The position numbers and the translations under genes are program-made. From positions 1 to 29,706 of the IMG/VR virus record IMGVR_UViG_3300025808_000190: 29,706 bases of DNA, one strand, 5' to 3'. The notes below the pieces were generated by a model. It did no database searches, was not told the origin of the DNA, and saw only the letters and a program-made list of their open reading frames with translations. The stretch is from a virus (Duplodnaviria > Caudoviricetes). The first letter of the stretch is position 1; every line of letters starts with the position of its first letter. Positions 2,348 to 12,205 of this stretch are shown piece by piece.

Positions 2348-2424
2348 GGCACACTCTCCTTGCAGTTAGCGGGCCGCGCGAGCGGCCTGATGGATTGAAA
2401 CATAAACAGGTGTTACATCAGCAA

Positions 2425-2452
2425 AGCAAGGCCGCCGTGAGGCGGCCTTGCT
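2425..2452. terminator. GC-rich hairpin between 2456-2887 and 2021-2347
   Basis: AGCAAGGCCGCC-GTGA-GGCGGCCTTGCT perfect 12-bp stem just after a minus-strand stop; weak U-tract. Confidence 0.55.
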
Positions 2453-2455
2453 CAT

Positions 2456-2887
2456 TTATGCGTCGCAATCTCCGTAGCAGTAGGTATGGCATTTTATGCA
2501 ATACCCCGCATGATGTTTACTACGCGCTTCTTGCTCTTCGATTTCAATTTTTTCTAAGGCTGCAACAATCGCGGCTGTTTCTGTAAGTTCTTCCCCTGAG
2601 GCTTCTGTTTTTTCCGGGGTTGGCTCCTGCTCGGAAAGCTCCATAACGTCCCAGACGCCGCCACACCACATGCAGTTGTAGGCTGCCTTTGTGATGCCCA
2701 TTTCGGCCATCTTGGCTTTGACTGCCGCCTTGTAATCGATGCCTGTCTCTGGATCTTTGATGGCGATTACATCAGATCCAGGTGTTTTATTTTCAAGGTC
2801 TTGCCATGCGTACCCTAAGGCGGCTTGCGGGTTGCCATTGTAATCAGATGGGATGACGTTAATTACGGGTAGGTGGTATGCAGTCAT
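2456..2887 (-). CDS. Hypothetical protein with C-terminal Cys-rich (CxxCxxxCxxxC) motif
   Basis: GGAG SD before ATG 2887 (MTAYHLP); ends HHAGYCIKCHTYCYGDCDA. Confidence 0.7.
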   Translation of the reverse strand: MTAYHLPVINVIPSDYNGNPQAALGYAWQDLENKTPGSDVIAIKDPETGIDYKAAVKAKMAEMGITKAAYNCMWCGGVWDVMELSEQEPTPEKTEASGEELTETAAIVAALEKIEIEEQEARSKHHAGYCIKCHTYCYGDCDA

Positions 2888-2945
2888 TTTATTCTCCAAT
2901 CCCCGAGTCCCGAGGTGCGGTGTCTGCGCTGTGCCGACGGTTCTC

Positions 2946-2973
2946 ACTATACGCGCATTGCGCGTATAGTCAA
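2946..2973 (-). promoter_or_regulatory. Sigma70 promoter overlapped by a perfect palindromic operator
   Basis: Minus strand TTGACT-16 nt-TATAGT; ACTATACGCGCA-T-TGCGCGTATAGT (2946-2970). Confidence 0.75.
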
Positions 2974-3095
2974 CAACTTTTTTTGTGGGGCAATGAAGGT
3001 AGATTCGCTGTGCCAATTTTTGCTCGGCGTCTACGTGACTTCGCCGTGTTTTGAGGCGTCTTTTCGGCACATGATTAATTTCCATCTATCTGTAT

Positions 3096-4256
3096 TTACG
3101 CGGCTTTCTTCTTGCGCTGTAGGATTGTGATTCCAGTTGTCGTGGGTTCGAGCCCCATCAGCCACCCCAGTTTCCCGCCGTCTTGGCGATAGTCCTCGCT
3201 AACATCTTCGGCGCTGTGCCCAGAATTGCACCCACGGGCCTGCGCCGCGCTGGTGATGTTCTCGGCGTAGTTGGCCACGTAGCCGGGTGCGAGGTGGGCG
3301 TATTTCATCACCATGTCCAGGCTGGCCCAGCCGCCCAGTTCCTTCAGTACCGTCAGCGGCGTCCCGCTCATTACGTGCCAGCTTGCCCAGGTGTGGCGTA
3401 GGCCGTGGAAGGTAAATGCCGGATCGATGCCGGCGGCTGTAGCGGCGGCGTACCACGCCTTGGTGGTGGTGCGCTCGATCTTCTTCCCTCGGAACGTAAA
3501 AACATAGCGGGCATCGGCGATGGTGATCTTCTTGAGTTTCTTTTTTTGCTCGGATCGTTCCTTTAGCACCGCGATCGCGTCTGTGTTGAGCGGGACGGGT
3601 ATCGCTTTGCCTGCCTTGGCCTCATCTGGCCAGATCCATGCGATCTTGCGCTCGATGTCGATGTTCTCCCACATCAGGCCGGTGACGTTGGCGCGGCGCA
3701 GGCCGGTGCACAGCGCGAGTCTGGTCATGGCGGACAGGTGATCAGGCAGGGCGGCGGTGAAGCGGTCGGCCTGTGCGCGGGTGATCCACAGGAAGCGGTC
3801 GTTGTTCTCCGGCAGGTAGGGTATCTTCGGCACGCCAGCCAGCAGCCCCTTGGCGTGCGCGTAGTTGAGCACGGCGGAGACGATGGCGAGGAAGCGGTTG
3901 GCGGTGGAGGCGGCGCGCGTCTGCATCAATTCCTTGCGGATGGCGAGCAGTGCGTCGGTGGTGATGTGGGTGATCGGCTTGTCGGCCAGTCTCTCGTTGA
4001 GCCATATCAAGCGGACGCGGTCGGTCTCGTAGCTGGCCTTGTGGATGGCGTGTTCTTCGACCCACTGCAGGGCGGCTTCTTCCCAGCTAGCTATGCGGAC
4101 GTCGCCAAGTTTTTGTTCTCGCCAAATTTCAGCACGACGGCGGTCGTGGTATTCCTGCGCGGCTTGGTGGTCGGCTGTGCCAGTAGTTTCTCTAATCTCT
4201 GTTTTGCGGATCGTCCATTTGCACCAATAGATCCTGCCACGCTTGTAGAGCGACAT
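3096..4256 (-). CDS. int: Tyrosine recombinase / phage integrase
   Basis: Catalytic set TGLRR, K (EAKAG), FHGLRHT, LGGW, MKYAH; N-terminal arm-binding-like domain. Confidence 0.95.
   Translation of the reverse strand: MSLYKRGRIYWCKWTIRKTEIRETTGTADHQAAQEYHDRRRAEIWREQKLGDVRIASWEEAALQWVEEHAIHKASYETDRVRLIWLNERLADKPITHITTDALLAIRKELMQTRAASTANRFLAIVSAVLNYAHAKGLLAGVPKIPYLPENNDRFLWITRAQADRFTAALPDHLSAMTRLALCTGLRRANVTGLMWENIDIERKIAWIWPDEAKAGKAIPVPLNTDAIAVLKERSEQKKKLKKITIADARYVFTFRGKKIERTTTKAWYAAATAAGIDPAFTFHGLRHTWASWHVMSGTPLTVLKELGGWASLDMVMKYAHLAPGYVANYAENITSAAQARGCNSGHSAEDVSEDYRQDGGKLGWLMGLEPTTTGITILQRKKKAA
3122..3169 (+). mobile_element. attP: attP core = 3' half of tRNA-His(GTG)
   Basis: GGATTGTGATTCCAGTTGTCGTGGGTTCGAGCCCCATCAGCCACCCCA matches the anticodon arm to CCA end of proteobacterial tRNA-His; 5' half absent; lies within the integrase 3' end. 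Confidence 0.9.
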
Positions 4257-4441
4257 TCTGTTTCTCCCTGAGTCTTATCACGGTATTGTGCGCGTAGCCA
4301 TTCGGCCAGGTCAACGTCAAGGAAGACCCAACATTTACCCGGCTTGGCCCCCGGCACCTCTCCGGCGCGCGCCTTCGCCTCCAGCGTGTGCGGGTGCAGG
4401 CGCAGGAATTGGGCGGCTTCGTTGAGGTCTAGGGTGCGCAT
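4091..4441 (-). CDS. xis: Excisionase-like HTH protein
   Basis: LDLNEAAQFLRLHPHTL..ARAGEVPGAKPGKCWVF (HTH_17-like); immediately upstream of and overlapping int. Confidence 0.8.
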   Translation of the reverse strand: MRTLDLNEAAQFLRLHPHTLEAKARAGEVPGAKPGKCWVFLDVDLAEWLRAQYRDKTQGETECRSTSVAGSIGANGRSAKQRLEKLLAQPTTKPRRNTTTAVVLKFGENKNLATSA

Positions 4442-4443
4442 GG

Positions 4444-4710
4444 TTATGCTTTACGCCTCAGGATGATCTTCACAAGCTTCGGGTGCGACCACATGGCGGC
4501 GATGATGCCGACGGGGCCGCCGTTGAGGGTGGCGAAGATCTCGGACCAGCTCATGTGCGGCACGGTGTGCCAGATGAACAGGTTGAGCGCGCCGATGGCG
4601 TAGCTGGTGATGATGGCGAGCACGTAGTGATTGCCCTGCACGTTGAGCTGCTGCAGGCCGAGGGCGAACACGACGAGGGCGCTGGAGCAGAAGAGAGTGA
4701 GTTCGGTCAT
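4444..4710 (-). CDS. Small membrane protein (about 3 TM)
   Basis: Hydrophobic 88-aa ORF, TAATG-coupled. Confidence 0.65.
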   Translation of the reverse strand: MTELTLFCSSALVVFALGLQQLNVQGNHYVLAIITSYAIGALNLFIWHTVPHMSWSEIFATLNGGPVGIIAAMWSHPKLVKIILRRKA

Positions 4711-4970
4711 TACTTGCACTTGTGGATCGTCTTGCCGGGCAGGCGGGTGATGCCTGGCCTATCCTCTGTTGCCCCCGGAATAAATCCGCTGCCTTCGATG
4801 CCCGCGCCGCGCATGGCATCCACCTCTACCTTGGCGCTGTTGATGATGACTTGTCCGATGTCGCTCACTGCCTTGGCATTTTCGATGTTGATGGTTCCGT
4901 CTTTTAGCTTGCGCATGGTTTCAAAAAGAATGGCTCGCAAGTCGACAATGTTGTTGCTTTCGTTACTCAT
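4710..4970 (-). CDS. Hypothetical phage protein
   Basis: AAGGAG SD; MSNESNNIVDLRAILFETMRKL...AKAVSDIGQVIINSAKVEVD. Confidence 0.75.
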   Translation of the reverse strand: MSNESNNIVDLRAILFETMRKLKDGTINIENAKAVSDIGQVIINSAKVEVDAMRGAGIEGSGFIPGATEDRPGITRLPGKTIHKCK

Positions 4971-10370: not shown

Positions 10371-10679
10371 TTATTGCTTACCGTTTGTGCCTTCCTCTGG
10401 TTCAGCAAGTGAATTCCCTGCCCGATACCAGGCTTGCCTCTCTTTCACACCTAAACGCCTGGAGATTTCGTCGGCGATGGATATTTTCCCTGTGTATATC
10501 CAGTCGATAGAAAATTCCAGCGTTTTTTGCAATAGTAATAACCTGTCTGCCGGCGGGGTCACAAGGTTGTTCTCCCATTGAGAGACCATCCCTTTCGATA
10601 CACCACACAACTCTCCAAACTTGTCGCCGGATAGATTGTTGCGTTCCCGTAGTTCTTTTAAGCGCGCGCCGATTGTCAT
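10371..10679 (-). CDS. cI: CI-like repressor (XRE HTH, no peptidase S24 domain)
   Basis: MTIGARLKELRERNNLS...GVSKGMVSQWEN...SIDWIYTG; divergent from cro. Confidence 0.8.
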   Translation of the reverse strand: MTIGARLKELRERNNLSGDKFGELCGVSKGMVSQWENNLVTPPADRLLLLQKTLEFSIDWIYTGKISIADEISRRLGVKERQAWYRAGNSLAEPEEGTNGKQ

Positions 10680-10688
10680 TTGCGAAGT

Positions 10689-10754
10689 GTATAGCCGTTC
10701 TAAATCCGCAAGGTTTAGCATCGCTTGACATTGTGTGTTTAGTGGTATTAAACT
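10689..10754. promoter_or_regulatory. OR region: three 17-bp operators with PR and PRM
   Basis: GTATAGCCGTTCTAAAT (10689), GTTTAGCATCGCTTGAC (10713), GTTTAGTGGTATTAAAC (10737), 24-bp period; TTGACA at 10725-10730. Confidence 0.8.
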
Positions 10755-10764
10755 GCGCGCCATC

Positions 10765-10983
10765 ATGACTATCTCCATAAAAGAAATTGCAGCAAAGGTC
10801 GGCGGGGTGGTTTCCCTGTCAACTCAGCTAGGTTTATCGCGCGGCGCAGTGTCGCAATGGAAAAAGGTGCCTCTGGAGCGCGTGTCATCAGTATCAAAAC
10901 TCACTGGCATCCCTAGAGAGGTCTTACGCTCTGACGTATTCGGGAAATGCGAGGAAGACAACCAATCCAAGGAGGCCGCTTGA
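10765..10983 (+). CDS. cro: Cro-like (YdaS-type) regulator
   Basis: VGGVVSLSTQLGLSRGAVSQWKKVP...LRSDVFG. Confidence 0.85.
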   Translation: MTISIKEIAAKVGGVVSLSTQLGLSRGAVSQWKKVPLERVSSVSKLTGIPREVLRSDVFGKCEEDNQSKEAA

Positions 10984-11312: not shown

Positions 11313-11420
11313 GGGCATTCCTTTCGTGATGGGGTTTTGTGTGAGAACTCCACTCTATCACCTGAGCGGATGCCCCCTTTTTATCGGGGGTGTGCGGTGA
11401 TGCGCCTCCAGTCTCTCTAT

Positions 11421-11496
11421 CGCAAGGTGGCGCAGTTGGCAGCGCGCTCGGCTCATACCCGAGAGGTCGCAGGTTCGAGTCCTGCCCTTGCAACCA
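11421..11496 (+). tRNA. tRNA-Met(CAT), initiator-like
   Basis: 76-nt cloverleaf: CGCAAGG/CCTTGCA acceptor with C1:A72 mismatch, GCGC D stem, CTCGG-CTCATAC-CCGAG, GCAGG-TTCGAGT-CCTGC, encoded CCA. Confidence 0.92.
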
Positions 11497-11537
11497 TCCC
11501 TGTCTCCTCCCTGAGCGGGTGCCGCGCAAGCGGCCTT

Positions 11538-11574
11538 GCGTCATCTGCCTCGCGGCCGGTGGCGCTTTTTTATT
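11538..11574 (+). terminator. Probable terminator after the tRNA
   Basis: Imperfect GC stem GCGTCATC...GGTGGCGC followed by TTTTTTATT. Confidence 0.5.
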
Positions 11575-11680
11575 CTGTGGAGGTCGCATGGCGATCTCTT
11601 GTTTGTTCGTCGTTGTTCATGGGTGGACTTTGTGCCAGAGGCGCAATGGCTGTCTACGCCAATCATTAAGGGGGTTTACC

Positions 11681-12205
11681 GTGACCAAAGAACGCTATGC
11701 GCTGCATCCGCTCGATGCGCTGGATGATTCGGTGCGCAAGTATCCGGGCGGACATAAGGCCCTCGCTGCGCGCCTGTGTAAGACCGAGAGCACGCTGCGC
11801 AAGGAGCTGACGCAGGGTGTGGATACGCACCGCATCGGCTATGAGGATGAGCTGTCGAAGATTTTGTTCTGTCTCGAAGCGGCCAAGGTGGACGGATGGG
11901 ATAACACGCTGCATGCGTTGGCCTATCGCCACAGCCGTTTGCTGGTGCCTATCCCGGATGTGCACGATCAAGACGACGACGAGCTGGTGCAGATGGTGTG
12001 CGCGATGGTGAAGGAGGTGGGCGATGTAGGTGGGAGCCTGACCGCAGCCAAGAGCGACAAGGGCGACGGCAAGCGATACATCAGCACCCGCGAGTTCCAA
12101 GGCTTCGATGTGCAAGTCGAGGAGGCGATGGCAGCGCTCGCAGTCCTGCGCGAGCGCGTCCGCGAAGAGCATCAGCAGGCGAAGAAGGTGGGGCTGGTTA
12201 AATGA
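11681..12205 (+). CDS. Phage regulatory CII-family (CP76-like) protein
   Basis: GTG start after AAGGGGG; KYPGGHKALAARL..TESTLRKEL....H; C-terminal D...IS..E helix; position after cro. Confidence 0.75.
   Translation: MTKERYALHPLDALDDSVRKYPGGHKALAARLCKTESTLRKELTQGVDTHRIGYEDELSKILFCLEAAKVDGWDNTLHALAYRHSRLLVPIPDVHDQDDDELVQMVCAMVKEVGDVGGSLTAAKSDKGDGKRYISTREFQGFDVQVEEAMAALAVLRERVREEHQQAKKVGLVK

Follow-up and report, generated by a model that had tools for sequence, protein, structure and literature searches.

Introduction

The bias between integration and excision is classically explained by the excisionase Xis and, in lambda, by retroregulation at the RNA level. The lambda element responsible, sib, lies beyond attP and lowers free-phage Int via mRNA and RNase III; integration detaches it. 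In Mx8, attP lies inside the tyrosine integrase gene and, according to the summary of Magrini et al. (1999) given in PMC4701971, integration swaps 112 residues for 13 and the enzyme becomes less active. In BPs, as outlined in PMC3694055, integration removes a tag from the repressor, and Int keeps a tag of its own. Junction sequencing reported in PMC3548686 places attP of phiX216 in the 3′ end of int, and the account in PMC7253208 has SSV-type archaeal integrases split into inactive pieces by integration. Both an attP inside int (Mx8, phiX216) and the removal of a tag from a repressor (BPs) are thus already known.

Here we describe a phage in which int runs through its own insertion site, so that the free-phage integrase carries a degron-like tail and the integrated-phage integrase does not. 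The window that we analysed is the whole 29.7-kb virus record (29,706 nucleotides), which holds lambdoid genes for terminase, portal, capsid, primase and repressor.

The attachment site within the integrase gene

The features of the locus, in window coordinates, are as follows.

3096..4256, minus strand: tyrosine integrase gene int, free-phage (attP) form, 386 aa (Pfam Phage_integrase, E 2.7e-30, and Phage_int_M)
3122..3169, plus strand: attP core, 48 bp, the 3′ half of the host tRNA-His from anticodon stem to CCA, identical to the tRNA-His of viral locus L005
3125..3131, plus strand: inferred strand-exchange region, 7 bp, the anticodon loop TTGTGAT
3096..3122, minus strand: swappable degron-like tail, phage-arm codons LQRKKKAA and stop, replaced by QDSTN and stop in L005
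3083..3095, minus strand: place of an IHF-like site, immediately past the stop of int and degenerate in this phage
3056..3071, plus strand: conserved phage-arm motif (GCGTCTTTTC..CACA), found in the attP arms of L006, L008, L009, L010 and L011 and the attR arms of L328 and L421
2928..2935, plus strand: arm-type repeat GCTGTGCC, copy 1, a putative arm site for Int (direct repeat D2)
3007..3014, plus strand: arm-type repeat GCTGTGCC, copy 2 (direct repeat D1)
3213..3220, plus strand: arm-type repeat GCTGTGCC, copy 3, within int on the opposite side of the core (direct repeats D1/D2)
4091..4441, minus strand: excisionase-like gene xis, 116 aa (Pfam HTH_17, E 3.3e-10; PHROGs excisionase families)

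Positions 3096–3169 are taken as attP because phage genes flank them on both sides. Translated on the minus strand (3096–4256), int gives 386 aa with the C-terminus GWLMGLEPTTTGITILQRKKKAA followed by a stop. The core is read antisense as G-W-L-M-G-L-E-P-T-T-T-G-I-T-I; the eight phage-arm codons occupy 3122–3099 and the stop 3098–3096. An earlier note on this DNA had claimed that attP lies inside int, which reads antisense through the tRNA-His core and then into LQRKKKAA, and that no overlap with a downstream gene explains the Ala-Ala end. The translation and the alignment with L005 confirm the former. The latter also holds, since the next minus-strand open reading frame (2456–3085) begins past the int stop and no real gene overlaps the end of int. 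The heptamer TTGTGAT is the likely strand-exchange region, because at tRNA-His attP loci the identity with the tRNA starts at or just before it and the two preceding bases vary. An Rfam search of 2400–4400 found nothing and ARAGORN found no tRNA at attP, as is expected of a core that is half a tRNA gene. Elsewhere in the window, a tRNA-Met(CAT) lies at 11421–11496, between the repressor region and a CII-like gene.

The catalytic residues R187, K214, H284, R287, W310 and Y319 are invariant among 71 aligned relatives, and this R-K-H-R-H/W-Y set, together with the Phage_integrase domain, identifies Int as a lambda-type tyrosine integrase. An AlphaFold2 model predicts three strands and a helix at residues 2–50; this predicted arm-binding domain, the arm repeats on either side of the core and the excisionase-like gene agree with the lambda type. 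In L006, L008, L011 and L012 the motif WATCAR, which we take to be the IHF consensus and on which the term IHF-like site is based, begins one base past the int stop; L009, with an int that ends short of the core, has it at that distance too. WATCAR is not matched at 3083..3095 in the window itself. The (GCGTCTTTTC..CACA) motif is possibly an arm site or a site for an accessory protein.

On the same strand as int, xis overlaps its 5′ 166 nt and is conserved upstream of related int genes. The overlap covers the first 55 int codons (4091–4256), and the Xis proteins of the closest relatives often end in Ala (LATSA, LETCA, SATPA, LVTPA), which may be a tag or a consequence of the overlap. Immediately upstream of xis, the early leftward operon encodes a small membrane protein (4444–4719) with a holin-like PHROG match (E 9.6e-8). 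Int has no convincing promoter of its own among the matches found; a lambda-pI-like match within xis (4314–4285, 9/12 matches) was dismissed as evidence, because the stretch tracks the Xis coding sequence and relatives differ in its second hexamer. A perfect 12-bp inverted repeat at 2941–2973 overlaps back-to-back sigma-70-like matches (10/12 and 9/12), and downstream of it lies a minus-strand cassette (1516–2887) with two HTH genes, which is likely an operator-controlled accessory cassette. A loose contig end at 2937 in three sequencing runs suggests that this cassette differs between strains.

The integrated form

The integrase of L005 is 99% identical to that of the window over residues 1–378, with 7 mismatches between 3122 and 4256; complete genes for tRNA-His, -Arg and -Pro come after it, encoded on the other strand. 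The identity of L005 to the window core spans 3122–3169 (48 bp). Its integrase ends GITIQDSTN, the stop being supplied by the antisense of the D-arm. The prophage ending had been predicted as QGSTN with a D-arm stop; the stop and the final …STN proved right, the exact residues in L005 are QDSTN, and QGSTN itself is seen with other tRNA-His genes of the Gallionellaceae family. Each of the 55 complete copies of tRNA-His that were checked would yield a five-residue ending (…STN, …STS and once …SNN).

Two Gallionellaceae-family genomes (G001 and G171) carry both junctions of a related prophage. In G001, attL encodes QGSTN; attR has rpsB and tsf as neighbours, and its sequence in that frame is ILPFKKPTA. 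The prophage in G171 is complete, measures 36 kb and encodes homologues of four window proteins (terminase, primase, Xis and Int); its attL gives ILDSTN and its attR IPINIKKIA. With the full tRNA-His of L005, these junctions bear out the proposal that such phages integrate at tRNA-His. Recombination swaps the int tail, and the catalytic domain stays whole in both forms of the gene.

Over 1095 bp, the host flank of L005 matches the Gallionellaceae-family genome G216 at 99.4% identity, and the best DNA matches to the phage are in groundwater and aquifer metagenomes. Pattern searches for the exact attR of this phage returned attP copies only. Metagenome contigs have loose ends at 3121/3122 that are tRNA-His 5′ halves; as no listed piece among the sequencing-run contigs spans the junction, these ends are not assignable to this prophage.

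Several further observations concern the hosts. In G216, the likely host species, locus L437 (G216:C54:222-1750) retains no more of int than its final 276 bp, next to the core, and is the scar of an earlier prophage. An RNA contig with a depth of 109 covers it, possibly as read-through of the tRNA operon antisense to the 3′ end of int. A peak of RNA depth at 3144–3398 was rejected as phage expression, because its end coincides with the end of the int remnant in G216. A T-stem variant of tRNA-His with compensatory changes is common to some Gallionellaceae-family hosts and the attP cores of their phages, as L325, L328, L006 and L008 show. At two loci, L397 (G252:C49) and L402 (G213:C392), the tRNA-His half is present twice, with 50 bp and 920 bp between the copies, which are probably the scars of repeated integrations.

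Conservation of the tail

We considered 320 loci, of which 118 lacked an antisense T-loop near int and were excluded from the DNA-based counts. The remainder were sorted into attP and attL by a D-arm test, giving 29 attP loci in which int reads through the core, 46 attP loci in which it stops before the core, 25 read-through and 97 stop-before-core attL loci, and 5 truncated ones. An Ala-ended tail is conserved among relatives, as the reading in the earlier note requires. The 20 distinct read-through attP loci include this phage and its 99% variant; a final Ala is present at 18 of them and a final Ala-Ala at 14. Translated in their other frames, these loci give 1/30 for Ala and 0/30 for Ala-Ala. 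Where int stops short of the core, the corresponding frame at the attP loci gives 4/21 and 1/21. Dinucleotide shuffles of the 20 phage arms (n = 2907) gave Ala in 10.4%, Ala-Ala in 0.9% and a basic run with final Ala in 2.4%.

The codons point the same way. All four Ala codons are used at the last position and all three stops occur among the read-through attP loci; the 99% variant, L002, keeps Ala-Ala with GCA GCG TGA where the window has GCC GCG TAA, two of the last three codons being changed synonymously. Tail length varies, with the stop lying 27 to 80 nt beyond the anticodon region: just before the IHF-like site in this clade and about 40 nt past it in others.

For a wider sample, 121 proteins were added to the loci (3 of them unclassed) and clustered at 90%. 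A basic run with final Ala ends 43 of 63 read-through attP clusters, 14 of 176 stop-before-core clusters and none of 22 attL clusters, and terminal Ala is found in 45/63, 41/176 (23%) and 0/22. At least two Lys/Arg in positions −6 to −2 occur in 60/63, 39/176 and 0/22. In the protein-only count, attL proteins were defined by an ST[N/S/D] ending, and their 0/13 for Ala is discounted as circular, since the ending itself defined the class. With clustering at 50% the contrast falls to 2 versus 6 clusters, with p 0.036 for Ala and p 0.25 for Ala-Ala. A tree of 205 representatives was built by FastTree with the tails excluded; its support values are weak, and it implies at least 23 changes of state for read-through. 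Across supported branches it gives 9 independent pairs, in which a basic run with final Ala follows read-through 7.2 versus 0.1 times (median p 0.016); Ala alone does so 5.0 versus 0.1 times, which is not significant (median p 0.06).

Host genomes offer a separate view. Among 251 sampled family genomes, 41 have two or more core copies, and all 41 were examined. Of the untruncated tRNA-His half-sites, 2/37 are Ala-ended, and these belong to exactly the two genomes with a read-through attL integrase; none of the remaining 35 is, including that of a sister prophage of about 72% identity whose int stops before the core. In six genomes with a family integrase that stops before the core, the half-sites lack the basic tail with final Ala. 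The clearest, G063, has a 36.8-kb element whose Int (72% identical) ends ASILG and whose attR frame ends LMSRINL beside the same IHF-like site.

These sister phages (L009, L014 and L426, the last in G063; about 72% Int identity) have no tail swap. A variant acceptor stem of their tRNA-His puts TGA in the int frame, so that int ends …LG before the core, and the phage arms of L009, L014 and G063 no longer encode the basic tail. The sequence of the host tRNA seems to decide whether a tail switch is possible. At tRNA-Phe the pattern is the same, phiE202 ending KKRKAA versus RCSTN in related prophages, and KNKKAA (P0043) versus RCSTS (P0046) repeats it for a second tRNA type. A subclade that reads the tRNA-His core in a different frame (P0061, P0066, P0067, P0071, P0080, P0081, P0082, P0097 and L239) has Arg-rich tails such as RRRKKG or RRRRTG, with Ala in 4/10 and Ala-Ala in 0/10; once integrated, its int would continue beyond the D-arm into host DNA. 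Endings such as KRRS, RRTGTK and NSDNNV are found in some members that keep the usual frame. At the level of sequence comparison, these results show the tail to be selected as protein, the basic run with final Ala being conserved only where int reads through the core.

What the tail resembles

The AlphaFold2 model of Int has a mean pLDDT of 87, with values below 50 at residues 346–348 and 350–379. The tail swap falls 59 residues after Y319, and the low pLDDT at the C-terminus places it far from the folded enzyme; the last 40 or so residues are predicted to be disordered, as an unfoldase needs. A PDB search gave distant tyrosine recombinases only, none of which covers the tail. In the tail consensus, positions −5 to −3 are mostly Lys or Arg (−3 in 54/63 read-through attP clusters), −2 is Ala, Lys, Thr, Val or Ile, and −1 is Ala.

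The earlier note had read the tail as an ssrA-type signal, and here it needs revision. A terminal Ala-Ala on a predicted unstructured end is what ClpX C-motif 1 (ssrA-like) calls for, but the tail has no Leu at −3 and carries four positive charges, which is not typical. In the E. coli screen as presented in bioRxiv 10.1101/2024.01.29.576913, 91% of the top 100 tags end in Ala-Ala and the consensus is Leu-rich; strong ssrA-like 5-mers carry no net charge or no more than +2, and weak ones make up 39% of the Ala-Ala 5-mers. That highly charged tags are not among the strongest there, and that Ala-Ala is insufficient, is a point against a degron. The C-motif 2 tags listed in Table 2 of PMC9775585 are MuA RRKKAI, YbaQ RAKKVA and PaaA HARKVA, and according to PMC12723719 the MuA tag drives ClpXP degradation of a model protein. 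By pattern match, RKKKAA, PRKKVA and QVKKIA are of this kind, with a stretch of basic residues and then a final pair of small or hydrophobic ones. Lacking Leu at −3, highly charged and resembling the MuA, YbaQ and PaaA tags, the tail appears closer to C-motif 2, though ending in Ala-Ala, than to a copy of ssrA. As for the hosts, clpX was over the cut-off in 6/6 genomes searched and clpP in 2/2, and the tmRNA tag of G001 is ANDEKYALAA.

A proposed switch and its alternatives

We consider it somewhat probable that the removed tail LQRKKKAA is a ClpXP degradation tag, by which the free-phage integrase would be short-lived and the prophage integrase stable. Integration into tRNA-His replaces LQRKKKAA, the putative degron, with QDSTN, an ending presumed inert. 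Because xis overlaps int in one operon, Xis would be made together with unstable or stable Int, as the case may be. An incoming or freshly excised phage would make Xis and unstable Int, with little integration or re-integration, and lysogenization would be tied to ClpXP and protease load through this unstable enzyme; an induced prophage would make Xis and stable Int and excise efficiently. The switch would likely favour staying excised. Several observations speak against this reading. The tRNA D-arm dictates the attL ending, which therefore bears no mark of selection for itself, and we assume that it is stable. A final Ala is commoner than in the shuffles also among integrases that end short of the core (41/176), so a tag may be a habit of the family. 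Close sister phages do without any swap, and the other-frame subclade and some in-frame members lack the motif.

The basic run (60/63) is kept better than the final Ala (45/63), which makes a role in DNA binding or in ClpX remodelling possible. The tail might raise the activity of Int, for instance through a patch that binds DNA and assists the attP intasome in capturing attB, and the prophage integrase would then be less active, as the Mx8 prophage Int is in the account of PMC4701971. We find this unlikely. The class distribution of the Lys/Arg run and the Arg-rich, non-Ala endings of the other-frame subclade speak for it, but it leaves unexplained why the basic run is always at the extreme end, why Ala follows it in 43/63 clusters, and why tail lengths are very different.

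ClpX disassembles the MuA transpososome, and a MuA-type remodelling handle, by which ClpX would pull free-phage Int off a stable DNA complex with degradation secondary, would suit a tail whose nearest published motifs are RRKKAI of MuA and RAKKVA of YbaQ. We know of no hyperstable product complex for tyrosine integrases, however, and we regard this handle as improbable. The MuA tag, moreover, also drives degradation of a model substrate, as stated in PMC12723719.

Equally doubtful is that the tag is real but only keeps free-phage Int low, its loss at attL being neutral and arising from the want of a stop before the core. The 41/176 Ala-ended stop-before-core clusters, some of them KAA or KVA, fit this, as does the Int of BPs, which carries a tag that integration leaves in place (PMC3694055). 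Against it, a basic run with final Ala is about eight times commoner in read-through clusters (43/63) than in stop-before-core ones (14/176), and 40–60 open codons through arm sites and antisense tRNA are a costly place for a constitutive tag.

That the ending is a by-product of attP DNA motifs (an A-tract beside the IHF-like site) or of chance is very improbable and, on the sequences compared, largely refuted: the Lys codons of the short-tail clade do lie just upstream of the IHF-like site, but sisters with the same site and no read-through encode PKSCIN (L009), LMSRINL (G063) and LTTSYKTI (G062), long-tail clades put the motif about 40 nt past that site, codons change synonymously, and shuffles yield a basic run with final Ala in only 2.4%.

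Returning to the degradation tag, we are evenly balanced on a broader proposition: that widespread tRNA-targeting tyrosine integrases may delete their own ClpXP tag by recombination, a one-gene, self-resetting directionality switch (unstable free Int, stable integrated Int) that would have been gained or kept on repeated occasions, at tRNA-His, at tRNA-Phe and at further tRNAs. The stop of the stable form would come from the antisense D-arm.

Significance

If the tail is a degron, the locus would add to Xis and RNA-level retroregulation a third route, in which the product of recombination sets the half-life of the enzyme, and host protease load would feed into the integration step. The tail swap recurs in dozens of phages of Betaproteobacteria. 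Integrase annotations derived from prophages (…STN) and from free phages (…KKAA) are different proteins, which is relevant to the mining of integrases as integration tools.

Comparison with known systems

As with lambda sib, integration here detaches an element that would lower Int, and xis and int share an operon, as they do in lambda; the difference is that sib acts on mRNA and the tail would act on the protein. SSV1-type integrases likewise have attP inside int and are regulated by integration, as PMC7253208 describes them, but no split occurs here: the attL reading frame matches residues 1–378 at 99% and the swap lies past Y319. The integrases of the Burkholderia P2-like phages phiX216 and phiE202 are 40% identical to the window Int, and that of phiE202 ends KKRKAA; their target, however, is tRNA-Phe, and the available text of PMC3548686 and PMC13026187 mentions neither a tail swap nor proteolysis.

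With BPs the locus shares the removal of a C-terminal tail by site-specific recombination, a proteolysis tag in BPs and a putative one here, and the Int of BPs is itself tagged (PMC3694055). According to the same paper, BPs has its attP within the repressor gene and possesses neither xis nor cII, whereas here attP is in int. By PHROG matches this phage has a separate repressor (10371–10778), 7 kb from attP, a CII-like gene (11390–12205) and an excisionase, so that it is neither a BPs-type repressor switch nor the BPs-type three-gene switch. The removal of the tail would match the logic of BPs if the tail acts as a proteolysis tag.

The closest geometry is that of Mx8, as summarized in PMC4701971: attP lies in the phage's own tyrosine integrase gene, and integration replaces the C-terminus and leaves a complete enzyme. 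The prophage forms here (L005, L325, L404) are likewise intact Int proteins with a new C-terminus. In Mx8, 112 residues give way to 13; here it is 8 for 5, far from the active site, and because the lost piece resembles a ClpX tag the predicted direction is the opposite, with more Int in the prophage. In the literature searched, largely without subscription papers, we found no report of an integrase that deletes its own degron. Read from sequence, the feature joins the geometry of Mx8 to the logic of BPs in one gene; it is conserved, and both of its states are seen.
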